From positions 30,001-62,000 of the forward strand of contig JBBIMK010000008.1 of assembly GCA_037444445.1 (NCBI GenBank): 32,000 bases of DNA, in the 5' to 3' direction. Below, in pieces: positions 12,018 through 27,542 of the stretch (positions are counted from its first letter, which is position 1; each line of letters begins with the position of its first letter). The stretch comes from a bacterium (GTDB lineage: Bacteria; UBP7; UBA6624; JBBIMK01). The notes below the pieces were generated by a model that was given only the letters and a program-made list of their open reading frames with translations, searched no databases and had not been told where the DNA came from. The position numbers and the translations under genes were made by a program.

Positions 12018-12101
12018 AGGTGGTGAATTCTGGAACGAAGGCTCTCACACTTTCTACTTTATTCTTATAGAAAATATACAGCAAGGCTATCGGACTGGCT
12101 G

Positions 12102-13430: not shown

Positions 13431-14826
13431 CTGGTTTATCGGGGCGGGGTTGATACTCACCCTTGTGGGGGGATACACTGCCCATCAGCAAGGCTGGCTG
13501 ACCCTGCCTTTCTTTTCCCCAGCTATTACCGCACAACCTATGGAAGGGATGAGCGGAATGGAGATGGGGAAATCAAAAGAGGAGCATGCGGGAATGGCCG
13601 GGATGGAAGGTATGGAGGAAATGGAGGAAGAGGTAGCGCCCAAACGCATTATGATTGACCCGGAAATGCAGCAGATTATCGGCGTCAGAATCCAGAAGGC
13701 CGGATATATGCCCCTCGTGAAAGAAATTCGGACGGTGGGACGAGTGGAATATGACGAAACCCGACTGAAAGCGGTTACAGTTCGGGTGATGGGCTACATT
13801 ACCAAACTTCTTGTGGATTACACAGGGAAAGAGGTAGAAGAAGGCGAACCACTTTTTACCTTTTATTCTCCTGAGCTTGTTTCTGCGCAGCAGGAATATC
13901 TTCTGGCGTTAAAAGGGGCGAACACTCTTTCCGGTTCCTCCTATTCGGAAATCAGCCAGGGGAGCAAAACCCTGCTGGAATCTGCAAGAAAGCGTCTTCT
14001 CCTCTGGAACTTCACTGAGGAACAAATTCAATCTCTGGAAAATCGTGGAGAGCCAGAGATTGAGTCCTATGTCTATTCCCCGGTTTCTGGGACCGTGGTA
14101 GAAAAGATGGCTCTACAAGGCAAGCAGGTGATGCCCGGGGAAGATTTATACAAAATTGCAGACCTCTCTCAAGTCTGGGTTATTGCCGACCTGTATGAGG
14201 AGGATGCTCCCCTATTGCGAGTTGGCCAGCATGCTTCCATTCAACTCACCTATTACCCTGGCAAAGCCTTCCACGGCTCTGTGGATTACATCTATCCCTA
14301 TTTAGACGAGAAAACGAGAACGATCCGGGTCCGCTTCGCCTTTCGAAACCAGCGAGAAAATGCCCGTGGCGTGAGGGAGGAAACCCGGCACCTGGAACAC
14401 GAAGGAATGGAAGGGATGGAAATGCCTGGAATGCCCGGCATGAATCACACACAGCACCAGGCTCCAAATTCAACCTCTGAAAATTCTTCCGGATGGCTTC
14501 TGAAACCCGGCATGTTCACCAATGTGACAGTGAATGTGAATCTCGGGCAGTATCTTGCGATTCCGGAGGACTCTGTCATAGACACGGGCTTACGTCAGGT
14601 CGTTTTCGTGGACCTGGGGAATGGACATTTCGAGCCCCGGAATGTGGTTCTCGGGCATCGGGTGAACGGCTACTACGCCGTTCTCTCAGGCTTGAAGCCA
14701 GGAGAGCCTATTGTGACCAGCGCCAACTTCCTGCTGGATGCAGAGAGCAAAATCCGCACTGCGATGCCTGCGATGCCGGGAATGGATATGAAAGGGATGA
14801 AGATGCCCGGACATGCAGGACATTAG
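13402..14826 (+). CDS. cusB: Efflux RND periplasmic adaptor (CusB-like), with three Met-rich segments
   Basis: The ORF track starts at GTG 13393. ATG 13402 is preferred because GGAGGTG lies 6 nt upstream. The HlyD/MFP core is present (VRVMGYITKLLVDYTGKEVEEGEPLFTFYSPELVSAQQEYL). Met-rich tracts are MEGMSGMEMGKSKEEHAGMAGMEGMEEMEEE (N terminus), HLEHEGMEGMEMPGMPGMNHTQHQ (internal) and MPAMPGMDMKGMKMPGHAGH (C terminus). Confidence 0.9.
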   Translation: MESKRLKKTNWFIGAGLILTLVGGYTAHQQGWLTLPFFSPAITAQPMEGMSGMEMGKSKEEHAGMAGMEGMEEMEEEVAPKRIMIDPEMQQIIGVRIQKAGYMPLVKEIRTVGRVEYDETRLKAVTVRVMGYITKLLVDYTGKEVEEGEPLFTFYSPELVSAQQEYLLALKGANTLSGSSYSEISQGSKTLLESARKRLLLWNFTEEQIQSLENRGEPEIESYVYSPVSGTVVEKMALQGKQVMPGEDLYKIADLSQVWVIADLYEEDAPLLRVGQHASIQLTYYPGKAFHGSVDYIYPYLDEKTRTIRVRFAFRNQRENARGVREETRHLEHEGMEGMEMPGMPGMNHTQHQAPNSTSENSSGWLLKPGMFTNVTVNVNLGQYLAIPEDSVIDTGLRQVVFVDLGNGHFEPRNVVLGHRVNGYYAVLSGLKPGEPIVTSANFLLDAESKIRTAMPAMPGMDMKGMKMPGHAGH

Positions 14827-14841: not shown

Positions 14842-17800
14842 ATGATTGAACGACTAATAGACTGGTCTGCACGGAATAAATTCCTCGTTCTTCTCGCCAC
14901 CTTCTTTGCCATTCTCGGAGGTATCTGGGCGATTAAGAACACTCCGCTGGATGCCATCCCCGACCTCTCCGATGTTCAGGTCATCATCTACACCGAATGG
15001 ATGGGAAGAAATCCCAGAATCATAGAGGACCAGATTACCTATCCCATTTCCACCACTATGCTCTCTGCGCCGAAAGTGAAGGCGGTTCGGGGCATTTCTG
15101 CCTTCGGCTTCTCCTTCATCTATGTCATCTTTCAGGATGGAACGGACATCTACTGGGCGAGGACTCGTGTTCTGGAATATCTGGAAAAAATCAAAGGGCG
15201 TCTCCCGCCCGGCATCACGCCAATCCTCTCCCCGGATGCCACGGGAGTGGGCTGGGTTTATATTTATGCCCTCGCAGATAAAACCGGTCAGAACGACCTG
15301 GCACAACTTCGGACCATCCAGGACTGGTATCTGAAGTACTATCTGGAAAGCCTGCCTGATGTGGCAGAGGTGGGCACCTTTGGAGGTTTTGTTCGGGAAT
15401 ATCAGGTGGAAGTTGACCCGAATAAACTTCTTGCCTTCGGCATCCCGTTGAAGATGGTGATGGATGGCATCCGAATGAGCAATCTGGAGGTGGGAGGTGG
15501 AGCCATTGAACTCGCCCAGACGGAATATATGGTGCGAGGGATAGGATATGTGCAAAAAGTGGAGGACCTGAAAAATATCCCTCTGGGCACCAATATGATG
15601 GGCACGCCGATTTATCTCAAGGATGTGGCGAGAGTGACCCTGGGACCCGATATGAGGAGAGGAGCGGCGGACCTGAATGGAGAGGGCGATGTGGTGGGAG
15701 GCATCGTTGTGATGCGGTATGGAAAAAACGCCCTGCAGGTCATTAACCGGGTGAAGGTGGCGATAGAAGAGTTTCAGAAAACCCGACTCCCCCCCGGTGT
15801 TGAAATCATCCCCGTCTACGACCGTTCCAAACTCATTCTACAATCCATTGCTACCCTTCGCCGAACCCTGATTGAAGAGTCCATCATCGTGATTCTCGTG
15901 TGTCTCATCTTTCTCTTCAGCCTGAGAAGTTCCGGCGTGGTCATCGTCACTCTACCCATTGCCGTGATTCTTTCCTTCATCCCGATGATGTATCTACGGC
16001 TGACCTCCAACATTATGTCGCTGGGCGGGATTGCCATCGCCATCGGAGCCATGGTTGATGCGGCTATCGTGATGATTGAAAATGTCCACAAGCGGCTGGA
16101 GCATTTTGCACTGGAACATCCTGACTGGGCTCTGACATCAGAGGGTAGAGCCCAGCGAAGTCAAATCCTGATTCACGCCATGCAGGAAGTGGGAAAACCC
16201 CTCTTCTATTCCCTTCTGGTTATCACGGTCTCCTTCCTCCCGGTATTCACCTTAGAATATCAGGAGGGGAGGCTTTTCAAGCCATTAGCCTTCACGAAAA
16301 CCTTCTCCATGTTTTTTGCCTCCTTTCTTTCCATCACCCTGGTGCCTGCCATCATGGGACTATTTATTGAGAAGAAGGTCATCCCGGAGAAGAGAAATCC
16401 CATCAGCCGATTTCTTATCAGTCTGTATAATCCTGTTGCCCGTTTTGCACTGCGCTGGCGGTTCATCACCATCACCCTCGGTCTTATGGCAACTTTTCTC
16501 GCTTACCCTGCCTATAAAAAACTGGGGAGTGAATTTATGCCACCTCTCTATGAGGGTACCCTTCTATATATGCCAATGACCACACCGGGGATTTCTATCT
16601 ACGAATCCCGGCGGGTTCTGCAAATACAGGATAAACTCCTGAAGCAATTCCCTGAGGTTGACCAGGTGCTGGGGAAAGTGGGGAGAGCCACCACACCCAC
16701 GGACCCTGCTCCCCTGCCCATGGTAGAAACCGTAGTCTCTCTCAAACCTGAACACGAATGGAGGAAAGGGCTGACCTGGGAAAAACTCTTTGACGAGATG
16801 GATAAAGAAATTCAAATCCCCGGATTCGTGAATGTGATGACCATGCCCATCAAAAATCGGGTGGATATGATCACCACGGGGATACGAACACCCGTAGGAG
16901 TGAAGGTCTTCGGGCCGAAACTGGAGGAGGTTCAGGAGATAGCGGAAGAAATTGAACGCATCATTCCACAGGTGGAAGGCACGAGAAGCGCCATTGCCGA
17001 GCGCTCTTTAGGCGGGTTTTACTTGAACATCACCCCCAGGCGGGAAGCTCTGGCTCGCTACGAACTTTCCATTATGGATGTCCAGGATGTGATAGAAATG
17101 GCAATCGGTGGAACTGTCATCTCCACCACGATTGAGGGCCGAGAACGCTACCCCATCAATATCCGGTATCCGAGGGAACTTCGGCTCTCTCCAGCCCTCC
17201 TGAAAAGGGTATTGATTCAAACGCCTATGGGCTACTCCATCCCGATTTCGCAGGTGGCGGATATAGAACTCACTCAGGGTCCGGATATGATACGAAGTGA
17301 GCGGGGACAACTCACTGGCACAGTTTATGTTGATGTGGCTGGCCGGGACATTGGCTCCTATGTGGCGGAAGCCAAAAAACTGGTGGAAGAAAAAATCAAA
17401 CTCCCTCAGGGTTATTCCATCCTCTGGAGCGGGCAATACGAGTATATGCAGAGAGTTACAGAAAAGTTAAAATATATGATTCCCCTTACCCTTTTCATCA
17501 TCTTCCTGCTGATGTATCTCAACTTCGGCTCCGTGGGGAAGACTCTCGTAGTGATGCTTTCCATTCCCTTCGCTCTCACCGGGAGTATGCTGGGAATATA
17601 TTTGATGAATTATAATCTCAGCGTGGCGGTGTGGGTGGGAATCATTGCTCTCGCCGGCGTTGCCGCTGAAACCGGCGTGGTGATGCTGGTGTATATTGAT
17701 GAAGCCTATGAACGATACAAAAAACAGGGGATGATGCGCACCCGCCAGGACCTCTCTGATGCCATCATTGAGGGAGCAGTGCAAAGGGTTCGCCCCAAGA

Positions 17801-18009
17801 TGATGACCGTAATGGCTGTCATGATGGGGCTGATTCCCATCCTGTGGAGCCACGGAGCAGGTGCGGATGTGATGCGGAGAATCGCCATGCCGATGATTGG
17901 CGGTATGGTCACTTCTACCATTCTCACTCTCTTCATCATTCCTTCCATCTTTCACATCTGGAAATCTTTTGAACTCCCTAAACAGAAGCAAACTGGAGGT
18001 GAATCCTGA
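14842..18009 (+). CDS. cusA: Heavy-metal efflux RND transporter, CusA type (Cu(I)/Ag(I))
   Basis: 1055 aa with HME-RND architecture. Positions equivalent to the E. coli CusA methionine triad are conserved: LLYMPM, PLPMVET and NRVDMITTG. The stop overlaps the next start (TGATG at 18007-18011). Confidence 0.93.
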   Translation: MIERLIDWSARNKFLVLLATFFAILGGIWAIKNTPLDAIPDLSDVQVIIYTEWMGRNPRIIEDQITYPISTTMLSAPKVKAVRGISAFGFSFIYVIFQDGTDIYWARTRVLEYLEKIKGRLPPGITPILSPDATGVGWVYIYALADKTGQNDLAQLRTIQDWYLKYYLESLPDVAEVGTFGGFVREYQVEVDPNKLLAFGIPLKMVMDGIRMSNLEVGGGAIELAQTEYMVRGIGYVQKVEDLKNIPLGTNMMGTPIYLKDVARVTLGPDMRRGAADLNGEGDVVGGIVVMRYGKNALQVINRVKVAIEEFQKTRLPPGVEIIPVYDRSKLILQSIATLRRTLIEESIIVILVCLIFLFSLRSSGVVIVTLPIAVILSFIPMMYLRLTSNIMSLGGIAIAIGAMVDAAIVMIENVHKRLEHFALEHPDWALTSEGRAQRSQILIHAMQEVGKPLFYSLLVITVSFLPVFTLEYQEGRLFKPLAFTKTFSMFFASFLSITLVPAIMGLFIEKKVIPEKRNPISRFLISLYNPVARFALRWRFITITLGLMATFLAYPAYKKLGSEFMPPLYEGTLLYMPMTTPGISIYESRRVLQIQDKLLKQFPEVDQVLGKVGRATTPTDPAPLPMVETVVSLKPEHEWRKGLTWEKLFDEMDKEIQIPGFVNVMTMPIKNRVDMITTGIRTPVGVKVFGPKLEEVQEIAEEIERIIPQVEGTRSAIAERSLGGFYLNITPRREALARYELSIMDVQDVIEMAIGGTVISTTIEGRERYPINIRYPRELRLSPALLKRVLIQTPMGYSIPISQVADIELTQGPDMIRSERGQLTGTVYVDVAGRDIGSYVAEAKKLVEEKIKLPQGYSILWSGQYEYMQRVTEKLKYMIPLTLFIIFLLMYLNFGSVGKTLVVMLSIPFALTGSMLGIYLMNYNLSVAVWVGIIALAGVAAETGVVMLVYIDEAYERYKKQGMMRTRQDLSDAIIEGAVQRVRPKMMTVMAVMMGLIPILWSHGAGADVMRRIAMPMIGGMVTSTILTLFIIPSIFHIWKSFELPKQKQTGGES

Positions 18010-18014
18010 TGAAA
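17953..18014 (+). repeat. Direct repeat copy A (3' end of cusA through the first codons of the next gene)
   Basis: Sequence is CACATCTGGAAAT[22 nt]GCAAACTGGAGGTGAATCCTGATGAAA. It matches copy B at 24205-24241, apart from a 22-nt and a 3-nt indel and two mismatches. Confidence 0.75.
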
Positions 18015-18242
18015 TTTTTTGACCCTGTTTGCAACGTTTTCCTGGACACGCTGGACGAAGAGTTGCAGGCCCCTCACGGCAACCACATTCACTACTTCTG
18101 CTCTCCCACCTGCCGGAAAATCTATGAGGAAGCACTGGAATACGAGGAGACCATCCGAAATCCACTGGAGTTCCATGCCGGTGGCAGGGAAAAGGAGCCA
18201 TACCTTTTCATCAAGAGGGTAGATACAGGGTATGAGGCGTAG
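18009..18242 (+). CDS. YHS-domain mini-protein (77 aa)
   Basis: MKFFDPVCNVFL...HIHYFCSPTCRKIYEE matches the YHS/TRASH pattern DPVC-x(n)-Y(Y/F)FCS-x2-C. The start is translationally coupled to the cusA stop. Confidence 0.8.
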   Translation: MKFFDPVCNVFLDTLDEELQAPHGNHIHYFCSPTCRKIYEEALEYEETIRNPLEFHAGGREKEPYLFIKRVDTGYEA

Positions 18243-18275
18243 AAGAAAAAACTGAACACCTGGAGGTGAGAAAAT

Positions 18276-18764
18276 ATGAAACTTGTATGGGCGGTCATTC
18301 GGGAAAATAGACTACGAGAAGTTCAAAAAGCCCTGCAAAAAGAAGGCTTTACCGGGGCAACCGTAGTCCATGTTTCCGGTATGGGGGAAGAAGATTCTCA
18401 TCCTCCCCTCACCCTTTTTCCCCACATCAAAATGGAAATCATCACTTCGGATAACCTGGCAGAAAAAGCAGTGGAAACGATTATGAATGCTGCCTGGACG
18501 GGCTTGCCAGGAGACGGAGGGATTGCCATCTTACCGGTGGAGAAGGTCTGGAAAATCCGACATAAGGAACGACTCATCACTCTTTTGGAAAAAGTGATTG
18601 ACCCGGTTTGCAAAATGAAGATAGAGAAAATGAAAGCAGCGGGTAAGACAGAGTTTGCAGGAACCAGTTACTACTTCTGTTCTGAAATATGCCTGTTAAA
18701 ATTCCAGGAGTCTCCGGAAAAATTTCTCCGGGCAAGCAAGAGCTCTAAAGTAAAGGAGGAATAA
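18276..18764 (+). CDS. PII-like (GlnB-fold) domain fused to a C-terminal YHS domain
   Basis: The N-terminal ~105 aa align by eye to PII proteins: MKLVWAVIRENRLREVQKALQKEGFTGATVVHVSGMG...IKMEIITSDNLAEKAVETIMNAAWTGLPGDGGIAILPVEKVWKIRHKE. The B-loop TGxxGDG is kept and the T-loop is about 8 aa shorter. The C terminus DPVCKMKIEKMKAAGKTEFAGTSYYFCSEICLLKFQESPEKF is a YHS domain. GGAGGTGAG lies upstream. Confidence 0.8.
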   Translation: MKLVWAVIRENRLREVQKALQKEGFTGATVVHVSGMGEEDSHPPLTLFPHIKMEIITSDNLAEKAVETIMNAAWTGLPGDGGIAILPVEKVWKIRHKERLITLLEKVIDPVCKMKIEKMKAAGKTEFAGTSYYFCSEICLLKFQESPEKFLRASKSSKVKEE

Positions 18765-18766
18765 AT

Positions 18767-19060
18767 ATGAAATTGAATCCGGCAGGATTCGCAAGCGCTC
18801 TGGGGATAACCTCAGCCATCCTTTACTTTGTGTGCGGCATCCTTGCCGCGGTCACTCCTCAGTTTCTCCTCTACATTTTCAAGACCTGGTTCCACGGGAT
18901 GAATCTGGATGCACTCGTCCCTGCTGACGGACACATTTTCAATCTGACTCTGTTCATCATCGGGCTTATCACCTTCACGGCTACCGGCTGGGGCAGTGGG
19001 TGGTTGGTGGCAATTATTTACAATTTGTGGCAAAAGAAAAGCCCGGAGAAAGGAGAGTGA
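18767..19060 (+). CDS. Small membrane protein (97 aa, 2-3 TM), function unknown
   Basis: AAAGGAGGA lies 6 nt upstream of the ATG, and the start is 2 nt after the previous stop. Hydrophobic segments are LGITSAILYFVCGILAAV and LTLFIIGLITFTATGWGSGWLVAIIY. Confidence 0.65.
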   Translation: MKLNPAGFASALGITSAILYFVCGILAAVTPQFLLYIFKTWFHGMNLDALVPADGHIFNLTLFIIGLITFTATGWGSGWLVAIIYNLWQKKSPEKGE

Positions 19061-19065
19061 TAGAG

Positions 19066-19275
19066 ATGGTAATGGAAATTGACCCCGTGTGCGGTATGAG
19101 GGTGGATACACGGATTCCTGCTGCTAAATCTGAGCATGAAGGGATTACTTATTTCTTCTGCTCCGTTGGGTGCAAGGGCATCTTTGACCAGGACCCCGAC
19201 AAATACAGCCGACTATACTGGAAGAAAAGAGGGATGGATAAACCTGAATCTCCGGAGGTGGAGACTGATGGTTGA
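19066..19275 (+). CDS. YHS-domain mini-protein (69 aa)
   Basis: The ORF track starts at 19000, but ATG 19066 has AAAGGAGAG 8 nt upstream and follows the previous stop by 5 nt. MVMEIDPVCGMRVDTRIPAAKSEHEGITYFFCSVGCKGIFDQDPDKY is a canonical YHS domain. Confidence 0.8.
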   Translation: MVMEIDPVCGMRVDTRIPAAKSEHEGITYFFCSVGCKGIFDQDPDKYSRLYWKKRGMDKPESPEVETDG

Positions 19276-19483
19276 GAAGGACCCGGTATGCGGGATGCCG
19301 GTAGATACAAAACGGGCAGGCAGTAGCCTTTCCTTTCAGTATAACGGAAGGACCTACTACTTTTGCTCTCACTATTGCCGGGAGCATTTTGAAGCGGACC
19401 CGGAACGATATTACCGGGGAAGGCAGACAGAGATGATGGGCCCACATAAAGAATTCAGGGAAAAAGGAGGTGAAAATGAATGA
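19268..19483 (+). CDS. YHS-domain mini-protein (71 aa)
   Basis: The ORF track starts at 19136. ATG 19268 has GGAGGTGGAG upstream and overlaps the previous gene by 8 nt (ATGGTTGA). The sequence is MVEKDPVCGMPVDTKRAGSSLSFQYNGRTYYFCSHYCREHFEADPERY. Confidence 0.8.
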   Translation: MVEKDPVCGMPVDTKRAGSSLSFQYNGRTYYFCSHYCREHFEADPERYYRGRQTEMMGPHKEFREKGGENE

Positions 19484-19977
19484 AGGGCCGAAATTCTCTT
19501 CACTGGATTCTGGCACTGGCGTTTACAGGGCTTTTTCTCGGTGTGGCAGACGATTCTTCCTCTACGCCTCATGATGAGGGGATGATGGGCGGGATGATGC
19601 CTATGATGCAGATGTGCCACCAGATGATGTCCCGACAGATGTCGGGAATGGGCGGCGGTATGCATCATCCTATGATGGACATGATGGGGCATGAACCGCA
19701 ACCCATGACCCCCGAGGAGCGGGAAATCGCTAAAATGATGGCGGATGCAGAGGTGAAAGAAGCCCAGCTGCACCGAATGCTTCTGGAAGAGAATGTGAAT
19801 CCGGATGCCCTGAAGGGAAAGATACGAGAGATTCATGACCTTCAGGTGGAAATCCAGTTCAGGGAAATCATGACCGCTCGTGCAAAAGCATCGGCTCAGA
19901 AACCTTCCGAAAAGGGAGAAAGCAAGAGTGAGCACGAGATGCATCACATGGGCGGCATGGGCAGGATGGGGAAATAA
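19480..19977 (+). CDS. Exported Met/His-rich protein with a Spy/CpxP/ZraP-like helical core (periplasmic metal binding or chaperone)
   Basis: Signal peptide MKGRNSLHWILALAFTGLFLGVA. The Met/His tract is HDEGMMGGMMPMMQMCHQMMSRQMSGMGGGMHHPMMDMMGHEPQPM. The helical segment TPEEREIAKMMADAEVKEAQLHRMLLEENVNPDALKGKIREIHDLQVEIQFREIM resembles periplasmic heavy-metal-sensor/Spy-family repeats. The C-terminal tail is HEMHHMGGMGRMGK. The ATGA overlaps the previous stop, and GGAGGTG lies 8 nt upstream. Confidence 0.75.
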   Translation: MKGRNSLHWILALAFTGLFLGVADDSSSTPHDEGMMGGMMPMMQMCHQMMSRQMSGMGGGMHHPMMDMMGHEPQPMTPEEREIAKMMADAEVKEAQLHRMLLEENVNPDALKGKIREIHDLQVEIQFREIMTARAKASAQKPSEKGESKSEHEMHHMGGMGRMGK

Positions 19978-20021
19978 CGGAGGGTGAAGAGGAGGAATTG
20001 CCCCCTTCCATCAGGAATCGC

Positions 20022-20052
20022 GGGGGGTCCTCTACCTGCTCCGGGACCCCCC
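20022..20052 (+). other. GC-rich stem-loop inside the operon (no U tract)
   Basis: GGGGGGTCC (20022-20030) pairs perfectly with GGACCCCCC (20044-20052) around a 13-nt loop. It lies in the only sizeable gap (96 nt) of the module and is followed by CGATTCC rather than a T run. Confidence 0.5.
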
Positions 20053-20073
20053 CCGATTCCACTTTAAGGAGGA

Positions 20074-20766
20074 ATGCATATGCCTACATGCGCTGTGTGC
20101 TTGATGAAAGTCTCACGCGAGGTTAAATTTCGCACAGAAATTAAGAAGCGAACCTACTATTTTTGCAGTTCCCGCTGTCTGATGCAATTTCAGAAAACTC
20201 CGGAAAAATATTCTCCTGTGCATATACGAACACCGGCATTTGTGGGAATTCCTTCCCGGGTTCATCTCAGCCAATCCGCCTTTACAGCATTGATTTTATC
20301 CGTGGCGGAGATATTCAAAAAAGAAGCCATGGGCTACCTTCTGGGAAATTGCAAGGGCGAAGTGGTGGAGATAGACCATGCGATACCCTTTCAAACGGGT
20401 AAAAGAGGTTATACTTACAGTGCAGTTTCTCTCCGGCGGCTGGAGTGGGTTAGAGACCTGACAGAGCGCATCCATCCAGGATTGCAGTGGATTGGAGATT
20501 ATCATTCTCACCCTCAGCATGGAAATGTCCTGCGTCTTCACCTTCCCAGCATTCTGGATGTGGAAGATATGGAACCCGGGTATGTTTATTTAGTCATTTC
20601 AGTGAACGAAGTACAAGTTTGCTTACCCTGGCGCACGAGCAGGAAGAGGGGAACTCTCGCTGGAACTCTGGGAAAATTGCGGATGGAGATTGCGGGCTAC
20701 TGTCTTGATAAAGAGCAAAATTTGCGCCGTTTAGAGGTGGATGCCCCCTGGTTGAAAAGAAAATAA
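20074..20766 (+). CDS. TRASH/YHS-type zinc-ribbon domain fused to a JAB/MPN (JAMM) metallopeptidase domain
   Basis: The N terminus CAVC-x21-CSSRC (MPTCAVCLMKVSREVKFRTEIKKRTYYFCSSRCLMQFQKTPEKY) is the full TRASH C-x2-C-x19-22-C-x3-C pattern. The C-terminal half has JAMM elements: KKEAMGYLLG (Glu) and GDYHSHPQHGNVLRLHLPSILD. That is HxH...S-x2-D with 12 residues where 7 are usual. The likely true start is ATG 20080, 7 nt after AAGGAGG. Confidence 0.75.
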   Translation: MHMPTCAVCLMKVSREVKFRTEIKKRTYYFCSSRCLMQFQKTPEKYSPVHIRTPAFVGIPSRVHLSQSAFTALILSVAEIFKKEAMGYLLGNCKGEVVEIDHAIPFQTGKRGYTYSAVSLRRLEWVRDLTERIHPGLQWIGDYHSHPQHGNVLRLHLPSILDVEDMEPGYVYLVISVNEVQVCLPWRTSRKRGTLAGTLGKLRMEIAGYCLDKEQNLRRLEVDAPWLKRK

Positions 20767-22880
20767 AAAAAGCCCTATTTCTTTATGCTTTTTTCACGGT
20801 AGTCCAGCCAGCACTTCTATGGGCGCACGGGGCAGGGCATCTCTCCACAGAAGAAATGGCTTCGGGACTGGTGGTCGTTGGGCGCTATCAGTTTCTGCTG
20901 GAAAAAGAAGCCACGCCACTCACCCGGGGAAAGACATCATACATTACCGTTCGCATCTTTGATACTTATGCGAAGGCTCTGCTGAAGGGGAAGCGAGTGC
21001 TTATGGCTATCAAACTTCCTCAAGCAGCGATTCCCCCCGGCCAAATCCCGGTACCCACGCTTATACCACCTTCTTCTCAGCACTCTTCTACAGGAATAGC
21101 AGTGGACAGTCCTGTTTCCTGGACCCCAGAGGGCAACCCGGATGTATCCGACCTACTGCCCACAGAAGAAACTGCGGAGGGAGGGCATTATCGGATAAAA
21201 TTCACTCCTGAAACTTCCGGGGTTCATCTATTGAAACTGGCACTGTTTGTGGACGATGCATCCTCACCTCTTCTAATAGAATTCCCTCTCCAGGTAAAAA
21301 ACCCGGCGTTCACGCTCACACGAATCGTATTTTTTACGCTTCTCCTGCTATTCCTCACCGTTATTTCTCTGAGCGTTTTCTCTCTCCGCAGAAGATATGG
21401 CTCCTCCGATTCACAGTCTTTGAATCTACTGGAAATTCCATGGTTAAACCGGTTTATTCGCTGGAGATATTTTCAAACAGTTTTTCAAGTTCCCCTGCTG
21501 TTTTTGTTGATTCTCATCATCTTTGCAGGTTTATATGATGCACCTGATGGGAGCAAAAATTTCGCCACGATTCTCACCTGGACAGTGTGGTGGGCGGGGA
21601 TTATCTTTACCTTCGTTCTACTGGGAAGAGTCTGGTGTTTTATGTGTCCTGTGGGAGGGCTGGCGGATTGGACGGGGAAATGGGCTCAGCCCCGTCGCCT
21701 TCTACCCAAACTCCTTCGTTCTTTGTGGATTCCCACCGTTCTATTCCTTTTTCTTACCTGGCTGGATGGAGCGGTGGGCATCGTAAACAATCCGCGCTTG
21801 ACCGCCTGGGTCCTGATGTCTATTGCCGGGCTTGCAATTCTCATTTCTCTGCTGTTTGCCCGTAGGACTTTTTGCCGGTATATCTGCCCGATTGGAGGAA
21901 TGATTGGGTTATATTCTATGTTTTCCCCGGTAGAGTTGAGGGTGAAATCTCATGAAATCTGTCGTTCACACAACCCGAAAACCTGCTATCTGGGTTCTCC
22001 AGATGGGGAAGGATGCCCGATGTTTGAATATCCAGCGGTGATGAATCGCAACAATTACTGTAACTTTTGCGGGGAGTGCGTCAAAACCTGCTCGCCGAAC
22101 AATCTTGTCTTGAGATTTCGCCCGTTCGGGACAGACCTTTTTACTCTGGTAAATCCCCGTCTGGATGAGGCATTTTTTGCCCTTACATTAACAGGAGTAA
22201 GCCTGGTGGCGGTAGGGCATATGATTGCTCCCTGGCATTCCTGGATGCTGGGGCTTTCCAGGCTCATCGGATTGGGAAGGCTGGGTATTACCAGCGAGAA
22301 AACCTTAACTGTCATCGGTTTCACCATCACCCTGTTCAGTATATCTGTGGTGATTTTGCCTGCTCTGGTTTACGGTGCAGTGCTCTGGCTTCAAAAGTTT
22401 TCTGTGGGGCAACCCATTCTGGCCGACCGAGGGAACGACGGCAGGGCAGAAAAAGTGGCTCCACATCAAATTTTCAGCCGTTTTGCTTACGCCTTCATTC
22501 CTGTGGGATTATCCATGCATCTGGCTCACAATATCCAGCATTTATTAACTGAAGGAGCCGTTATCATCCCCGCCACACAAAAATTCCTGAACAACTATAC
22601 TTTCTTTAATCTCGGCATTTCCAACTGGCAGGCTTATTCTTTCCCTCATTCCCCCTATATCACCTGGCTTCAAATCACACTCGTCCTCATATTTTTGCCC
22701 TTTTCTCTGCGAATACTTGATAGGGTGTGGCATCAGTATTTTTCTCCATCAGCCCGATTTCAGTGGGCAATGGCTCCCTTACTCCTTTTGGTTCTCGTTC
22801 TGGTGTGGCTGAATCTCTTCCTTATCCAGCAAGATATGTCTGCCCGGCACACAACCCTGTTGACAGCCATCGCCCGATGA
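20748..22880 (+). CDS. Polytopic membrane Fe-S protein of the NapH/MauN/CcoG(FixG) type with an exported N-terminal beta-sandwich-like domain
   Basis: ORF track gives 20856-22880. Motifs are GRVWCFMCPVGG, RRTFCRYICPIGG (the CxxxCP type of NapH/CcoG) and the ferredoxin-like CNFCGECVKTCSPNN. There are about 10 or more TM segments. The frame is open upstream to 20712 and encodes a signal peptide (VEKKIKKALFLYAFFTVVQPALLWA/HGAGH) with no ATG/GTG/TTG. CTG 20748 sits 7 nt after GAGGTGG, so the start given here is provisional. Confidence 0.7.
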   Translation: MVEKKIKKALFLYAFFTVVQPALLWAHGAGHLSTEEMASGLVVVGRYQFLLEKEATPLTRGKTSYITVRIFDTYAKALLKGKRVLMAIKLPQAAIPPGQIPVPTLIPPSSQHSSTGIAVDSPVSWTPEGNPDVSDLLPTEETAEGGHYRIKFTPETSGVHLLKLALFVDDASSPLLIEFPLQVKNPAFTLTRIVFFTLLLLFLTVISLSVFSLRRRYGSSDSQSLNLLEIPWLNRFIRWRYFQTVFQVPLLFLLILIIFAGLYDAPDGSKNFATILTWTVWWAGIIFTFVLLGRVWCFMCPVGGLADWTGKWAQPRRLLPKLLRSLWIPTVLFLFLTWLDGAVGIVNNPRLTAWVLMSIAGLAILISLLFARRTFCRYICPIGGMIGLYSMFSPVELRVKSHEICRSHNPKTCYLGSPDGEGCPMFEYPAVMNRNNYCNFCGECVKTCSPNNLVLRFRPFGTDLFTLVNPRLDEAFFALTLTGVSLVAVGHMIAPWHSWMLGLSRLIGLGRLGITSEKTLTVIGFTITLFSISVVILPALVYGAVLWLQKFSVGQPILADRGNDGRAEKVAPHQIFSRFAYAFIPVGLSMHLAHNIQHLLTEGAVIIPATQKFLNNYTFFNLGISNWQAYSFPHSPYITWLQITLVLIFLPFSLRILDRVWHQYFSPSARFQWAMAPLLLLVLVLVWLNLFLIQQDMSARHTTLLTAIAR

Positions 22881-22935
22881 ATAAACTGGAAATGAATGCT
22901 TCAAAGGAAATACAGCAATGGAGAGGTGAGGTGAG

Positions 22936-23244
22936 ATGTGTAGATTCATCTGGACGGTAATTTTAGTGGTAACTCTGAGTTCAGCAGGGTTAGCCCATAC
23001 AGGAGAGAAACACGAGAAGTTGCAGGAGTCACCCCCATCTGCGGAAGTTACAACGCCAGAGAAAGAAATGAACCAGGGAGTGGAACACGAGATGATGGAA
23101 GGAGCATCAGAAACCCGGCCTGCTCCTCAGGTGCCTTTGAATCCGGCGAGAGATGTGGTTTTGCTTGTCATATTCACCGCTGGTGGAATCTGGCTGGCGA
23201 TTCGCAACTACCAGCATTTCTCTAAGGGGGCTGCTTCCCGATGA
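22936..23244 (+). CDS. Small exported, C-terminally membrane-anchored His/Glu/Met-rich protein (102 aa)
   Basis: Signal peptide MCRFIWTVILVVTLSSAGLA, with a predicted mature N terminus HTGEKHEK. It also has VEHEMMEG and the C-terminal TM VVLLVIFTAGGIWLAI. GGAGAGGTGAGGTGAG lies upstream. Its stop overlaps the cytochrome b start (ATGA). Confidence 0.6.
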   Translation: MCRFIWTVILVVTLSSAGLAHTGEKHEKLQESPPSAEVTTPEKEMNQGVEHEMMEGASETRPAPQVPLNPARDVVLLVIFTAGGIWLAIRNYQHFSKGAASR

Positions 23245-24236
23245 CCACCTGGCGAGAAAGATTCGGTCTTCACGCGCTGGCGTACCCGGTTCCATCACAC
23301 AGTCACCGATTAGACTATGCCCTCGGAGCTATCGCTCTCTCGGGCTTTCTGATTCTCATTCTCACGGGCATCTGGCTGGGGCTTTTATATCAGGTCGGTG
23401 CCACCAGTGCCTATGAAAGTGTGGAGGCTCTTCAGGGTCTGGACCGGTGGGTGCGAAACCTACATTACTGGTCCGCCCACTTCACCTATCTTACGGTGCT
23501 TCTTCATGTGGTTCGGGTAGGGATTACAGGGGCCTATCGCACTCCGAGAGAAGGAATCTGGTGGTTGGGAGTTTTTCTCCTCGCTACCGTCTCTGCTATA
23601 TTCCTCACCGGAACCATCATCAAGTGGGACCAGGAAGGATATGAAGCCTACGCCCATCTGGAAGAAGGCTTCGCATACGCCGGACCTCTTGCCAATTTCT
23701 TGAAAAGCAGATTTACTGGTTCTGTCGCATTTTCCTCTCTCTTCTTCACCCATACTTCCCTTCTCCCGATTTTAGTTCTTCTTCTGATTGCAGGACATTT
23801 ACTTCTGATAAAAATCCACGGGATTTCTGAATTACCTGGCGAGACCTCTTCCACTGCACGCATTCCTTTTACGCAGGTTATGAAAACCATTTCCCTTTAT
23901 ACAGGTGGATTTTTTATTCTGCTGGTGATACTTGCCACTTTCCTCCCAGCCCCATTGGGGCCTAACTTCGTAGAAGGGTTTGAGGTTACTAAACCTCCGT
24001 GGCCCTTCCTCTGGATTTATGCCCTGGAGAACTGGCTTGGAATGATGGGTATGGTATGGGGACCTGCCCTGCTCTTCCTCGGATTATTGGCTATGCCACT
24101 GCTGGACCGGGGGAAAAATCGGCGAGCATGGATTACCCTATTCCTCCTTGTCCTTCTACTTCTGATTGCCCTTGGTTTATATGCTGCCCTCTCTGTTCCC
24201 GTTCCTCATCTGGAAATGCAAACAGGTGAATCCTGA
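23241..24236 (+). CDS. Cytochrome b (fused b6-like N-domain plus subunit-IV-like C-domain), no adjacent Rieske or cytochrome c partner
   Basis: The helix-B His pair is in NLHYWSAHFTYLTVLLH (13 intervening residues). The helix-D His pair is in FFTHTSLLPILVLLLIAGH (14 intervening residues, the b6-type spacing). The C-terminal part has PPWPFLWIYALENW at the position of the PEWY Qo motif. Confidence 0.8.
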   Translation: MTTWRERFGLHALAYPVPSHSHRLDYALGAIALSGFLILILTGIWLGLLYQVGATSAYESVEALQGLDRWVRNLHYWSAHFTYLTVLLHVVRVGITGAYRTPREGIWWLGVFLLATVSAIFLTGTIIKWDQEGYEAYAHLEEGFAYAGPLANFLKSRFTGSVAFSSLFFTHTSLLPILVLLLIAGHLLLIKIHGISELPGETSSTARIPFTQVMKTISLYTGGFFILLVILATFLPAPLGPNFVEGFEVTKPPWPFLWIYALENWLGMMGMVWGPALLFLGLLAMPLLDRGKNRRAWITLFLLVLLLLIALGLYAALSVPVPHLEMQTGES

Positions 24237-24241
24237 TGAAA
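24205..24241 (+). repeat. Direct repeat copy B (3' end of the cytochrome b gene)
   Basis: Sequence is CTCATCTGGAAAT-GCAAACAGG-TGAATCCTGATGAAA. See copy A at 17953-18014. It gives cytochrome b the same C-terminal QTGES* tail as CusA (QTGGES*) and the same TGATGAAA stop/start junction. Confidence 0.75.
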
Positions 24242-24295
24242 GAAAACGAACCTAATGTGGAAGAAAACGAAAATCTTCAGAGGAGGTAGAGTGAA

Positions 24296-24754
24296 ATGTC
24301 ACAGAAGAAAGGCTCAACCAGGGAAGCAGAGAAAGCCAGGTCTTTATCGCGAGTGATAGGGGTGACTGGTTTTCTCGCCCTGGGGCTTGGACTCTTTTTC
24401 ACTGTCCGCCTATTTCTTACGGGGAAACCGGTGGAGATAAAAACCAATGGAGAAGCTCCACCTTACAGGCGAGTGGAGACACGCCCTGTTCTTCCCTCTT
24501 CTCTTTTCACTGGTGCTGTGGCAGAAGCCTATCAGGCTGCCCACGATATGCCCGATTTCATTGACCAGTTTTACTGCTACTGCCAGTGCAAGGAATATCA
24601 CGGGCACAAAACTCTTCTTACCTGTTTTACTGATAAGCACGCCGCTAATTGCGACATTTGTTTATATCAAGCCCTCACTGCTGTCCAGATGAGCAAAGAA
24701 GGAAAGTCTGCGGATGCCATTCGCCATTTCTTCTCCTCCCGTTTCGCCCAGTAA
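24296..24754 (+). CDS. PCYCGC-motif family membrane-anchored protein
   Basis: N-terminal TM VIGVTGFLALGLGLFFTVRLFL. The Cys cluster is FYCYCQCKEYHGHKTLLTCFTDKHAANCDICLYQAL, matching the CYCxC...GH...CF...C-x2-C pattern of the PCYCGC family. AGGAGGT lies 8 nt upstream. Confidence 0.7.
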   Translation: MSQKKGSTREAEKARSLSRVIGVTGFLALGLGLFFTVRLFLTGKPVEIKTNGEAPPYRRVETRPVLPSSLFTGAVAEAYQAAHDMPDFIDQFYCYCQCKEYHGHKTLLTCFTDKHAANCDICLYQALTAVQMSKEGKSADAIRHFFSSRFAQ

Positions 24755-24844
24755 ACCCGGTCCCTGACCCTGGCTCATAGTAATGGTTTCTAAGAAGATG
24801 GACAGCCACCCCTCTGGCTTCTAACTTGTTCAACAGGAAATATC

Positions 24845-24871
24845 ACAGGATGAGTTGATGCGAAATCCTGT
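24845..24871 (+). terminator. Weak candidate terminator after the metal island
   Basis: ACAGGAT (24845-24851) pairs with ATCCTGT (24865-24871) around a 13-nt loop, followed by TTAT. The stem is short and AT-containing. Confidence 0.2.
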
Positions 24872-25013
24872 TTATGCCGTGACTTTTTAATGTGCTCTCA
24901 ATTACTATTTTTAGTTTTCTGATTAGAGAAAGACTCCGCTGAGAAAATTTTATGGATGGGTGTTCTCTGACTTCGGCACCGCTGTTCCGGCGCAAGCCTT
25001 ACCACCCTCACTT

Positions 25014-25568
25014 TCACCGGAATAAAACGGGGAGTTCAATGTAAGTGCCGGGAGGGATTCCAAAGGACCAAATTTGAGTGTTGGGAGCACCCGTAAAATA
25101 CTGGCGAATCAAACAAATAGGCACAGCATGGGTGACGACGCAGATGGTGCCTTCCGGATTTTGTCGGAGGATACGCCATAGAGAAGACAGGACTCTTTTA
25201 CGGATATGGCGGAAAGGTTCACCGTGTGGAGGTGAAAGGTGTTCCGGGTTTTCCCGCCAGCGTGCGAGCCAGTGAGAATAACGGCGTTGGACTTCTTCCT
25301 GGGTCAGCCCTTCCAGTTTGCCCTGATAAATTTCCCTTAACCCCGGAGCCAGGCGAATCGCCAGATGAAGCCTCTGTGAAATGTATTCTGCTGTTTCAAC
25401 CGCTCTTTTAAGCGGGCTGGAATACAGACAGCGTATGGATTTTTTAGTGAGTTCCTCTGCCATCAGATAGGCTTGTTGCCTTCCTTGTTCGGTGAGAGGG
25501 ATGTCCGTTTGCCCCTGGAATCTCCTCTCACGGTTGTATTGGGTTTCTCCGTGCCGAACGAGGAGCAG
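25014..25568 (-). CDS. Histidine phosphatase superfamily (phosphoglycerate-mutase-like); candidate glucosyl-3-phosphoglycerate phosphatase
   Basis: The ORF track starts at internal Met 25463. The same frame is open upstream to 25613 and encodes the catalytic N terminus KLLLVRHGETQYNRERRFQGQTDIPLTEQG (RHG motif). That stretch contains no ATG/GTG/TTG. The start given here is CTG 25568 and is provisional. Confidence 0.7.
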   Translation of the reverse strand: MLLVRHGETQYNRERRFQGQTDIPLTEQGRQQAYLMAEELTKKSIRCLYSSPLKRAVETAEYISQRLHLAIRLAPGLREIYQGKLEGLTQEEVQRRYSHWLARWRENPEHLSPPHGEPFRHIRKRVLSSLWRILRQNPEGTICVVTHAVPICLIRQYFTGAPNTQIWSFGIPPGTYIELPVLFR

Positions 25569-25584
25569 TTTATTCGCTTTCCAC

Positions 25585-27405
25585 CTACCTCCTTTGTAGA
25601 TATTCCTGGATGCTTATAATCGGAGGTCTTCTGTGTTCTTCTACTACTTGCGTTTCCAGATGAAGTTTTTGGGGCTCGTAAATGATTCGCCTCAAAACTG
25701 TTGAAGCGGTATCCAGCAGGTAAAGTTTTTTCTTCTCCTCCGCCCTTTTCAGAATAATTTGTTGAAGGGCAAACGACATTCTGGAAAGGGAGGAAAGGGA
25801 TTGGTGCCGATGCCGAACCATCTGGACATCCACCTGGGCAACAGAAAACAGACCAAACTCCTCCAGAATATCCAGGAGGTGGCCAATCTCCACACCGTAA
25901 CAGGTGTAAAAAGAGAGGTGTTCCAGGATGTTCCTCCTGCCTGCGTAAATGCCGGAAAGTGGCTGTATGATACCGGATAATTCCGGATAGAAAAGGTTGA
26001 GCAAAGGGCGAACAACCAGTTCTGTCACCCTTCCTCCACCGGTGCTGTGGACTACGCCGTCCAGAATCAGAGGCCTTCGGAAATACCCTTTCACATATCC
26101 GACCCTGGAATAGTAAAGCAAAGGCCCCAGAACTCCATAAACGAATTTCGGGTGAGGATTCTTAATATCTGTGTCCATCCACGCTATCAGGTCCCCTTTC
26201 AAAATGTGCAGACTCTTCCAGAGTGCTTCTCCTTTCCCCTGAAAAGTTCCATATTTACGGAGAATTTTAGGATGCTGAAACACGGGAATCTTTCTGGAGC
26301 GAGCAATTTCAACAGTTTTATCCTTGCTTCCAGAATCTATGACCACGATCTCATCCAGCAGAGGATATTCATCCATTAGCACAGGTTTGAGCGTATCCAA
26401 GATATTCGCGAGGGTGGATTCTTCGTTTAGAGCAGGGAGACCAAGACTAATGGTCAAGCCCAGGACTTTTTTTCTTTCCACCAGTTTTTTCAGGTCGCGG
26501 AATTCCCGGAAGTGAAAAGTATTTTCAGCAAACCACTTCTCAATATAGCTTTCTTTCGGCAGAGCGGGTAGGGGAGAAAAGAAAAAGGGTTCTAACGGAC
26601 GGACGGTCCGAACAATCAGAGTGATTCTTCCAGAGGACTCAGCAATCTTGCGGGCCCTCACTCCGGTGGAAAGGGCTGAATTCGGGCCTCTGGCGCCCAT
26701 GACGATGATGTGATGGCTTTTAGCCGCTCGGAGCACCTCTTCCACAAGGTTTCCGGATGTGGTAAGAAATTGAGTTACACGAGGGCTCTTGAGAGCGGAA
26801 TCCAGCACCATTGCATAGGGACGGTCTGCTTCCAGGTCATAAGCGGGTTCAGTTTCTGGAATCTTATGAAGTAGAGTCACTTCTCCGTCACAGGTGTTTG
26901 CAATTTGCACTGCGATTTTCAGAGCCAATTCTGCGTAGGGACCACCCCGCACTGGAAGTAGAATTCGGCACTTCTTCTGAAGTAGAGGTGAAGAAAGGGG
27001 GAAGCGAACGACCCCTGCATCACAGGGAGGATTTTCCATTAACTGGTCAATGATTCTGCTGTAAAAATTCCGGGTTTTTTTACGGCGCAGTTTCCAGATG
27101 AGCAATAAGAAGTCCGCATTCATTTCCTGAGCATGATGGTGAACTTCTTCATAAGCGTTTTTTGATACCTTCACCACACACTCACAGGATGTGTTCTCAG
27201 GAAGCGAGAAACGGGAGATTTTCTGGTGAAGGAGGGCACGCTTTCTACGGAGGTCAAGAGCCACACGACTCATCTGGTCTATTTTTTTTCGCTCTATAAC
27301 CAGTAAAAACCGAATCAGTAAAGGCTCTTCACCCTTCCAGAAAAGAAGGAAAGGAAGCAGATGATGAGCGTCATCAGGCGATGAAATGGGAACCAGAATT
27401 CTCAT
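25585..27405 (-). CDS. gpgS: Tandem USP-like domains fused to glucosyl-3-phosphoglycerate synthase (GT81-type GpgS)
   Basis: The C-terminal ~300 aa resemble GpgS: LPALNEESTL, IVVIDSGSKDKT, QGKGEALWKSL, AWMDTDI, GGGRVTELVVRPLLNLFYPELSGIIQPLSGIYAGRR and YGVEIGHLLD. The N-terminal ~300 aa have two USP-like halves (MRILVPISS...; ILLPVRGGPYAELALKIAV...HHIIVMGARG). Confidence 0.75.
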   Translation of the reverse strand: MRILVPISSPDDAHHLLPFLLFWKGEEPLLIRFLLVIERKKIDQMSRVALDLRRKRALLHQKISRFSLPENTSCECVVKVSKNAYEEVHHHAQEMNADFLLLIWKLRRKKTRNFYSRIIDQLMENPPCDAGVVRFPLSSPLLQKKCRILLPVRGGPYAELALKIAVQIANTCDGEVTLLHKIPETEPAYDLEADRPYAMVLDSALKSPRVTQFLTTSGNLVEEVLRAAKSHHIIVMGARGPNSALSTGVRARKIAESSGRITLIVRTVRPLEPFFFSPLPALPKESYIEKWFAENTFHFREFRDLKKLVERKKVLGLTISLGLPALNEESTLANILDTLKPVLMDEYPLLDEIVVIDSGSKDKTVEIARSRKIPVFQHPKILRKYGTFQGKGEALWKSLHILKGDLIAWMDTDIKNPHPKFVYGVLGPLLYYSRVGYVKGYFRRPLILDGVVHSTGGGRVTELVVRPLLNLFYPELSGIIQPLSGIYAGRRNILEHLSFYTCYGVEIGHLLDILEEFGLFSVAQVDVQMVRHRHQSLSSLSRMSFALQQIILKRAEEKKKLYLLDTASTVLRRIIYEPQKLHLETQVVEEHRRPPIISIQEYLQRR

Positions 27406-27542
27406 TCCTCTGCGTCATCTCCCATATCTTCATTTTATCGTGAATGATAGAAAATCAGAAGCCCTCAGTATGCGGAGGGTTGGCTTGCGGTCGTTCCCTG
27501 AAAGAAGTGTGGTAAGATAGGGTAGCAGGAGGGAGATAAAAT

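Follow-up and report, generated by a model that had tools for sequence, protein, structure and literature searches.

The 32,000-nucleotide stretch described here (positions 30,001 to 62,000 of contig JBBIMK010000008.1, in bacterial assembly GCA_037444445.1; hereafter 'the window', numbered from its first letter) contains a cusCBA efflux locus followed on the same strand by eleven further genes, numbered g1 to g11, which an earlier note had proposed to be welded to the pump as a single copper-handling system. The eleven genes are real and copper-linked, but they are probably not one eleven-part machine; the locus is more likely to be a chromosomal operon for resistance to Cu(I)/Ag(I), assembled from separable cassettes, some of which are candidate cupric-reductase or thiol-redox cassettes. 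Direct observations cover the genes present, the domains assigned to them, their homologies and the statistics of their neighbourhoods. The most interesting component appears to be the pair formed by g8, an iron-sulfur (Fe-S) membrane protein distantly related to CcoG, and g11, a member of the CYCXC family, which together represent a widespread candidate for copper or periplasmic thiol redox chemistry.

The modular nature of the locus is evident from a comparison with two close relatives, L083 and L001. The first of these, from a JGI metagenome, is approximately 83% identical to the window at the DNA level and is syntenic with it over the region between the trigger factor gene (tig) and the nuo genes. 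There, cusCBA is followed by a YHS gene orthologous to g5, then by g6, g7, g9 and cytochrome b, after which comes the zincin gene of the window. Missing from L083 are window positions 18035-19253 (g1, the PII::YHS gene g2, the DUF5676 gene g3, and g4), 20762-22916 (g8) and 24447-27564 (most of g11, together with two unrelated genes). Because the first approximately 150 nucleotides of g11 (24296-24446) still align with L083 positions 12046-12196, L083 is shorter by deletion at least at that point. In the second relative, L001 (GCA_900175145.1; approximately 73-82% identical to the window), cusCBA is followed by the YHS gene, g6, g7, g8 and a PCYCGC gene, and then by the window's Usp-glycosyltransferase gene; both g1 to g4 and the segment from g9 to cytochrome b are missing.

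The core that is common to the window, L083 and L001 thus consists of cusCBA, g5, g6 and g7, and is accompanied by three cassettes that vary independently of one another: cassette A (g1 to g4), an optional insert of 1.2 kb; cassette B (g8 and g11); and cassette C (g9 and the cytochrome b gene g10), which in the window lies between the two genes of cassette B. A repeat search at the cassette borders returned no flanking direct or inverted repeats and no signs of mobile elements. Since the close relatives carry only subsets of the genes, the locus is a patchwork of separable cassettes, and the description of eleven genes welded into one unit is not supported, three different subsets being found in the three loci. 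Analyses of neighbourhood conservation lead to a divided result, in that the copper context recurs in other genomes but the eleven-gene set is not conserved. The statement that the combination was undescribed was borne out to the extent that a published description was not found in the literature searched, where a functional description was likewise not found for DUF5676, PCYCGC, CYCXC, TRASH with JAB, or YHS with cusA and P-II.

The pump comprises an outer-membrane factor (cusC, 12102-13430; Pfam OEP, 133 bits), a membrane-fusion protein (cusB, 13393-14826; Pfam HlyD_D23, 252.6 bits) and a heavy-metal efflux resistance-nodulation-division (HME-RND) pump of the Cu(I)/Ag(I) type (HME4; cusA, 14842-18009), all encoded, like g1 to g11, on the plus strand. 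The cusA product scores 1154 bits against the CusA/CzcA model TIGR00914 (cutoff 701), and 1156 bits to E. coli CusA versus 512 to the zinc pump ZneA; all three positions of the M573/M623/M672 cluster of E. coli CusA, counted by hand in a HMMER alignment to 3t51, are methionine here. Scores that are closest to CusA, together with the methionine triad, argue that cusA encodes a true Cu(I)/Ag(I)-type pump, in agreement with the earlier assignment of CusCBA as a Cu(I)/Ag(I) exporter. The accompanying cusB product carries three Met/His-rich stretches (N-terminal MEGMSGMEMG..., internal HLEHEGMEGMEMPGMPGMNHTQH and C-terminal MPAMPGMDMKGMKMPGHAGH), and exceeds E. coli CusB in that respect. As had also been pointed out, the usual copper genes are missing: a search of the 32-kb window found no P1B-ATPase, multicopper oxidase, CopZ/CusF or metal regulator, and the MxCxxC motif occurs in none of its frames.

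The operon has several features in common with the CusCFBA and SilCFBA-SilE systems of E. coli and Salmonella plasmids, including a tripartite RND pump, a three-methionine relay and the AIG..DAA..IEN motif in CusA, a Met-rich CusB, and a Met/His-rich periplasmic accessory protein encoded in the operon (here, g6). It differs from those systems in having neither CusF nor CusRS or SilRS, in the lack of any detectable sequence relation between g6 and CusF, SilE or PcoE, and in the presence after the pump of ten more genes that are absent from them.

The first gene of cassette B, g8 (20748-22880; Fer4_5, 46.3 bits), is assigned a CTG start at 20748, which has a Shine-Dalgarno (SD) sequence 9 nucleotides upstream and corresponds to an ATG codon in the closest relative. 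A signal peptide is present only when translation begins at that codon, and is lost from the product that begins at the ATG (20856) chosen by a standard caller of open reading frames (ORFs); the description of g8 as an exported domain fused to an Fe-S protein consequently stands if the CTG is used, and otherwise does not. After the predicted signal-peptide cut, the mature protein begins H-G-A-G-H, with the 'HG' N-terminus being kept in the g8 subclade nearest the window; g9 is also His-first after its predicted cut, and the exported His-start domains that had been noted are found in both proteins. Two cysteine motifs in g8 are invariant (C261-x2-C264-P and C340-x3-C344-P), as are seven more cysteines for two [4Fe-4S] clusters (C369, C377, C387, C402, C405, C408 and C412), three histidines in a C-terminal helix (H555, H558 and H562), and M456, W460, M661, R664 and H665. 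An AlphaFold2 (AF2) model with a pLDDT of 79 displays an N-terminal beta-sandwich, a transmembrane (TM) helix, the helices bearing the cysteine motifs, the Fe-S domain, and five more TM helices; a Foldseek search with that model returned only weak matches to immunoglobulin-like (Ig) domains (CrdA, a copper protein, E 0.02).

The core of the protein (residues 255-416) was aligned by hhalign with E. coli YccM at a probability of 97.6% (E 4e-12, approximately 150 columns), and more weakly with NapH (94.9%). On that evidence the g8 core appears to be homologous to YccM and CcoG, consistent with the CcoG-type relation proposed earlier. Among bacterial enzymes, only CcoG, to which YccM is homologous, has been shown by experiment to be a specific cupric reductase; CcoG was found as an oxidase assembly factor, and its physiological electron donor is not known (PMC7558416). 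As far as CcoG and YccM are described there (Marckmann et al. 2019, as reviewed in PMC7558416), they correspond to g8 in being membrane proteins with two Cys-x2-3-Cys-Pro motifs, two [4Fe-4S] clusters, an Ig-like periplasmic domain and a copper context. With respect to the same description, g8 differs in that its Ig-like domain is N-terminal, His-first and located behind a signal peptide, in an extra C-terminal domain of five TM helices with conserved histidines, and in having as its partner a CYCXC (seleno)protein and not ccoHIS; no ccoHIS genes are found in the window. Assignment of g8 to the NapH or NosR polyferredoxins was rejected. The Fer4_5 core is common to these proteins, and weak NCBIfam matches to both are seen, but the scores fall far under the cutoffs (NapH: TIGR02163, 35.7 versus 213, and NF007013, 29.4 versus 234; NosR: NF046105, 17.6 versus 1000); in addition, there is no NapG-like partner gene in the window, FMN_bind is not matched in the N-terminal 201 residues, and nap or nos genes are lacking.

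At least 557 relatives of g8 were confirmed among GTDB species genomes. Full-length members number in the hundreds and carry no annotation beyond 'polyferredoxin' or '4Fe-4S binding protein'; the family is represented, again by hundreds of members, in the Nitrospirota, Nitrospinota, Desulfobacterota, Methylomirabilota/Rokubacteria, Binatia, Acidobacteriota, Chloroflexota and Actinomycetota. Neighbourhoods were sampled at 81 non-redundant g8 loci, of which 44 are well flanked (at least 3 kb on both sides) and 41 are long (at least 15 kb). A PCYCGC gene lies within 3 kb of g8 in 25 of the 44 well-flanked loci, and within 0.5 kb in 17 of them, and a P1B-ATPase (often headed by a YHS domain) or cusA is present in 17 of the 41 long loci. 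The arrangement varies with lineage: in Nitrospirota and Thermodesulfovibrionales, g8 usually stands between two exported proteins, alongside PCYCGC, a YtkA-like protein, and cusCBA or a YHS-CopA; in Desulfobacterota, g8 is followed by PCYCGC; and in Rokubacteria/NC10 (L034, L039, L056, L058, L063, L064 and L066) g8 comes after PCYCGC and before an EB_dh-like haem protein, cytochromes c of the mono- and multihaem kinds, and a full-length cytochrome b. YtkA-like domains occur within or beside g8 homologues, and one 999-residue homologue (P0072) is fused to the cation-efflux (CDF) domains PF01545 and PF16916, which again connects the family with the transport of metals. The suggestion that the genes after the pump are linked to copper is thus upheld, both by the position of the g8 family near P1B-ATPases or cusCBA and by the occurrence of the cytochrome b subfamily in a Meiothermus copper island.

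The Nitrospirota trio was observed in L008 (753-4163) and in 19 other loci, and consists of an exported protein of approximately 190 residues, whose mature N-terminus is H-D-L-V-W-P-G-E-K, the g8 homologue, and an exported protein of approximately 278 residues with a weak YtkA/filamin-like Ig signal. Neither of the two flanking families received a Pfam assignment.

In the partner of g8 in cassette B, g11 (24296-24754), the N-terminus bears positive charge, and a single TM helix is accompanied by a Cys-rich domain (CYCQC ... C ... CDIC) that is predicted to face outward. Its earlier identification as a PCYCGC protein is confirmed by a PCYCGC match of 45.8 bits and by NF041379 (CYCXC/OS_HP4), for which the score of 106.1 bits exceeds the cutoff of 90; no match was found among PDB sequences. 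Residues C94, C96, C98 and C110 are invariant among homologues. Among 28 g11 homologues located beside g8 relatives, 18 have a TGA codon at the position of window Cys119, beyond which the conserved frame continues (L002, L003, L005, L008, L024, L031, L035, L036, L039, L050, L052, L054, L056, L066, L069, L070, L072 and L073). These 18 partners are U-x-x-C selenoproteins, the window copy being the cysteine form (C119-D-I-C122), and the placement of selenocysteine there points to a centre that is redox-active or binds soft metals. The pattern agrees with the OS_HP4/CYCXC entry of two selenoproteome reviews, neither of which assigns a function; one lists the family as a UxxC selenoprotein (PMC13188914). 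In passing the family cutoff, and in the alignment of C119-D-I-C122 with the U-x-x-C motif, g11 resembles the described family (PF13798, NF041379), from which it differs in being a cysteine form; the recurrent pairing with g8 is not mentioned in the literature searched.

One explanation of the pair is that it serves envelope protein repair, with g8 reducing g11, periplasmic cysteines being kept reduced or isomerised under copper stress, and g6 and g7 acting as a chaperone and a protease, respectively; the accessory genes would in that case shield proteins and leave the redox state of copper unchanged. Copper causes non-native disulfides to form in the periplasm, in line with such a role. In 18 of the 28 partners, the first cysteine of the CxxC is replaced by selenocysteine, as is typical of centres with redox activity; g11 is predicted to be membrane-anchored and extracytoplasmic, and PCYCGC-family members in the Bacillales are lipoproteins (PMC13068155). 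The cysteine motifs and Fe-S clusters of g8 are, however, predicted to be cytoplasmic, and no DsbD- or CcdA-type relay of thiols across the membrane was detected; a chaperone assignment for g6 is statistically unsupported, and g7 has no signal peptide. Such a repair function is improbable.

Cassette C consists of two genes that overlap by 4 nucleotides. The first, g9 (22936-23244), encodes a small bitopic protein with a signal peptide. Its mature N-terminus is H-T-G-E-K-H-E-K (H-x-G-E-K-H-E-K in general form), part of the chain is rich in Met, His and Glu, and the TM helix is C-terminal. The second, g10 (23241-24236), previously recognized as a cytochrome b, belongs to the dihaem type (Cytochrome_B, 65.1 bits); R72, H75, H89, H171 and H186 are invariant across 29 sequences, the four histidines being the haem ligands, and the subfamily is short (330-360 residues) with KPxWPF in place of PEWY. 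The overlap of the two genes is retained in L083, and the motif H-x-G-E-K-H-E of g9 is conserved both there and in a distant locus, L087, where a pair with the motif H-K-G-E-K-H-E-R, a 4-nucleotide overlap, and a cytochrome b that is 38% identical is found after a giant multihaem cytochrome c. A Meiothermus homologue of g10 (44% identical) belongs to a copper island whose other genes include two for CsoR as well as those for CopA, HMA proteins, a cupredoxin and a Rieske protein. The contexts in L087 and Meiothermus therefore indicate that cassette C is real and portable; it is sometimes found in a copper context, and does not depend on g8.

Relative to the cytochrome b of bc1 and b6f complexes, g10 belongs to the same fold family, with the same four haem-ligand histidines and a b6-like spacing in helix D, but it is only approximately 330 residues long, has KPxWPF for PEWY, lacks an adjacent Rieske or cytochrome c1/f gene (no Rieske gene is found anywhere in the window), and is translationally coupled to a small His-start subunit. 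Assignment of g10 as the selenite/tellurite protein ExtP was rejected, its NF040969 score of 108.9 bits, against a cutoff of 290, reflecting generic b6 similarity.

The earlier interpretation had joined the cassettes in an integrated chain, in which cytochrome b and g8 would pass quinol electrons to Cu(II) bound on the His-start domains, Cu(I) would go to CusCBA, and PII::YHS and TRASH::JAB would regulate the process. The genes g8, g9, g10 and g11 are indeed contiguous on one strand, two of their products are His-first after the predicted cut, 8 loci of Rokubacteria/NC10 have a cytochrome b at a distance of 4-6 kb from the g8 homologue, and the g8 core is homologous to YccM/CcoG. Set against these points, g9 and cytochrome b are found in L083 although g8 is absent and g11 incomplete, L001 combines g8 and g11 but lacks both genes of cassette C, and PII::YHS is missing from both relatives; furthermore, cytochrome b is present in only 5 of the 44 well-flanked g8 loci, and its subfamily pairs with multihaem cytochromes and with other partners as well. 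As g8 and cytochrome b are each found without the other, an obligatory chain from cytochrome b to the Fe-S protein is unlikely, and the integrated scheme as a whole appears unlikely with it. What endures of that interpretation is the copper context, the domains and the YccM/CcoG homology; the single integrated eleven-gene redox machine, given the subsets in L083 and L001, is only partly supported.

The same cytochrome-rich contexts bear on a further explanation, namely that g8 and g11, together with g9 and cytochrome b, constitute an electron-transport or copper-cofactor-delivery pathway, concerned with respiration or cuproenzyme biogenesis, that is a chance neighbour of cusCBA. The Rokubacteria/NC10 order given above, in which PCYCGC and g8 precede EB_dh and the cytochromes, the giant multihaem cytochrome that adjoins the small-protein/cytochrome b pair in L087, and the discovery of CcoG as an oxidase assembly factor are all in line with such a pathway. 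It is nonetheless hard to reconcile with the tight or overlapping junctions with the cus genes and the SD sequence on every gene, with a linkage of g8 to cusCBA or P1B-ATPases that recurs in several phyla, and with the finding that no terminal oxidase or cuproenzyme gene lies beside the cluster in the window; we regard it as very unlikely.

The three accessory genes of the core encode a YHS protein, an exported protein and a fused metalloprotease. Orthologues of g5 (19268-19483; YHS, 50.6 bits) sit directly 3' of cusA in both L083 and L001. The exported protein g6 (19480-19977) is helical and Met/His-rich, has no significant family match and no match among PDB sequences, and is kept in the relatives (79% in L083 and 54% in L001). 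Its description as a Spy-like protein was not sustained: as a relative of Spy, CpxP or ZraP it scores only 13.3 bits against Metal_resist, for which 29.2 bits are needed (E 0.09), and hhalign to E. coli ZraP gives a probability of 0.5%. Judged by its composition, g6 could bind Cu(I) or Ag(I) in the periplasm, much as CusF, SilE or PcoE do.

The third of these genes, g7 (20074-20766), encodes a fusion of a TRASH/YHS domain (YHS, 32.5 bits) with a JAMM (MPN+) metalloprotease domain (Prok-JAB, 33.5 bits), and the claim of a TRASH::JAB fusion is borne out by those scores and by intact JAMM catalytic residues: E84, H144, H146 and D162 are invariant across 40 homologues, and S159 is at least 90% conserved. 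The AF2 model (pLDDT 89.7) matches an Rpn11 homologue, 6fnn, by Foldseek (E 6e-9; TMt 0.77-0.80). Among 5.8e9 clusters, the full-length TRASH::JAMM fusion was found in only two, the window's own and P0122 of the L001 lineage, and P0122 was the sole other match among 1.84e9 representatives; the other approximately 400 matches to g7 are stand-alone JAB domains or multi-YHS proteins, and the neighbourhoods of two of the stand-alone homologues (P0140 and P0142) were uninformative. The fusion is thus essentially unique and limited to a narrow lineage. Two genes before this JAMM gene, the C-terminus of g5 (19454-19483) reads ...KGG-ENE, and that of its L083 orthologue ...KGG-EIE, in each case Gly-Gly followed by three residues; because the L001 orthologue has no such tail, its presence may be a coincidence.

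Cassette A begins with g1 (18009-18242), a divergent TRASH/YHS-like protein of 77 residues, and continues with a PII-like::YHS fusion (g2, 18276-18764), a DUF5676 protein with two TM helices (g3, 18767-19060; 65.9 bits, threshold 27.6) and a YHS protein (g4, 19066-19275). The earlier count of five YHS/TRASH domains is correct by motif, in that a cysteine triad (C-x22-24-C-x3-C) is invariant in an alignment of the domains of g1, g2, g4, g5 and g7, but only four exceed the Pfam YHS gathering score of 30.3 bits (g2, 56.4; g4, 51.4; g5 and g7 as given above). The product of g1 falls below all Pfam thresholds (zf-FCS, 21.1 versus 22.4), and in the five-domain comparison the others are only approximately 21-28% identical to it. 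A recent tandem duplication giving rise to g4 and g5 was considered and rejected, as the L001 orthologue of g5 matches g5 at 74% and g4 at 37%.

The PII-like::YHS fusion proposed for g2, which begins 267 nucleotides downstream of cusA on the same strand, is substantiated by its P-II score of 70.5 bits (98 residues across model positions 1-106) and its YHS score; the T-loop appears, by eye, to be shortened. A canonical GlnB or GlnK identity was rejected, the scores lying below the equivalog cutoffs (NF008111, 54 versus 202; NF007946, 47.6 versus 181). Searches of plasmids by tblastn returned no full-length match to PII::YHS, only canonical GlnB/K-like matches over the PII half, and no match to DUF5676; a metagenome scan for PII::YHS returned one locus, in which only the YHS part was matched. 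The presence of PII-like genes beside HME-RND pumps is a known association, termed PII-NG (PMC7726332, citing Sant'Anna 2009), and by its clustering with such a pump g2 would fall within PII-NG. As PII-NG is summarized in that source for czc-type RND pumps (Sant'Anna et al. 2009; Geobacter GSU2134), g2 shares with it the placement of a PII-fold gene in an HME-RND pump operon, and differs in its C-terminal YHS fusion, in its position after and not before the pump, and in its absence from L083 and L001.

Returning to the preferred reading of a Cu(I)/Ag(I) resistance operon composed of separable cassettes, its core would combine CusCBA with a cytoplasmic YHS metal binder (g5), a periplasmic binder (g6) and the TRASH-fused JAMM protein (g7), to which cassette A would add further cytoplasmic capacity for metal binding or sensing. 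In cassette B, g8 would place two cysteine motifs and two [4Fe-4S] clusters on the predicted cytoplasmic side, and would present a His-start, Ig-like domain in the periplasm together with a C-terminal helix bundle lined by His and Met; its partner g11 would be membrane-anchored and extracytoplasmic, with a CxxC centre that elsewhere is UxxC. The cassette would most likely reduce Cu(II) to Cu(I), which would then be passed to exporters; alternatively, it may hold periplasmic thiols reduced during copper stress. Cassette C would work independently as a dihaem module linked to quinol and equipped with a small His-start subunit; on the periplasmic side it may act as a source or an acceptor of electrons. 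In its boldest and distinctly more tentative form, this reading would make g8 and its CYCXC (seleno)cysteine partner an undescribed copper redox system of at least eight phyla, in which a CcoG-distant Fe-S enzyme, a Cys/Sec centre and a His-start Ig domain might make Cu(I) for CusCBA or P1B-ATPases, and which in the window would be joined with the cytochrome b/HxGEKHE module and a metal-gated TRASH::JAMM protease.

Several observations weigh against the preferred reading. The activities just described, the side of the membrane on which each reaction would occur and the routes of the electrons are all drawn from homology and neighbourhood, and the topologies of g8 and g11 are predictions from charge distribution and AF2 helices only. 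By its sequence, g8 is not a CcoG orthologue, its Ig domain being N-terminal and not C-terminal; at E<=0.01 it has no CcoG, FixG_C or Fer4_18 match in Pfam/NCBIfam, and Foldseek found no solved structure like its membrane part. Approximately half of the long g8 loci have no copper gene within 10 kb, and in Rokubacteria/NC10 the gene is located among multihaem cytochromes c with no copper exporter in view, a context from which it follows that the g8 family may be a general electron-transfer component. Finally, the 96-nucleotide spacer between g6 and g7 contains a GC-rich hairpin of 17 bp without a U-tract (20014-20060, by folding; plus strand), which has a counterpart at the same place in L083 and L001. 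Through attenuation or an effect on mRNA stability, the hairpin may split the expression of the operon, and it could even divide the cluster into two transcription units.

The remaining signals are those of a compact operon. The stop codon of cusA overlaps the start of g1 (TGATG), as had been noted, and the mapped junctions from cusA/g1 onward (-1, 33, 2, 5, -8, -4, 96, -19, 55, -4 and 59 nucleotides) agree with the range of -19 to +96 reported for the eleven same-strand genes. Each of the eleven is preceded by a GGAGG-type SD sequence 5-10 nucleotides 5' of its start; in the case of g4, the ATG at 19066 is preferred over a GTG at 19000 on that basis. No intrinsic terminator was found in any spacer of the cus cluster. 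Upstream (5') of the operon stands a perfect sigma-70-type promoter on the plus strand (TTGACA-16-TATAAT with TG, 11531-11558), both hexamers of which are kept in L083, followed by a leader ORF (11567-11944, plus strand) whose product of 125 residues has a hydrophobic N-terminal segment and contains His and Cys, with ESHHSGMP and a CPKC region. In L083 the frame of this ORF is kept with zero indels at approximately 77% nucleotide identity; a Pfam search gave no match. The untranslated stretch beyond it (approximately 11945-12040) is more conserved than the ORF and holds two 8-bp inverted repeats, and an Rfam search of the whole window and the 5' leader returned five tRNAs only. The region 11567-12040 could be the regulatory leader of an operon that has no regulator. 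Upstream of the promoter are a single-domain ArsA/Get3-like ATPase gene (10238-11302), which is syntenic in L083, and a minus-strand cluster of tRNAs for Gly, Lys, Arg, Arg and Pro (9086-9623).

The differences between the window, L083 and L001 are of entire cassettes, so that what each of these contributes is directly testable; should nothing copper-specific emerge, the locus would be an ordinary cus operon with hitch-hiking neighbours. The CYCXC/OS_HP4 selenoprotein family gains from this analysis a concrete genomic partner and a testable role, and the g8 family, with its dedicated Cys/Sec partner and its enrichment next to copper exporters, offers a second candidate architecture for bacterial cupric reduction, a process that now rests on CcoG alone (PMC7558416).

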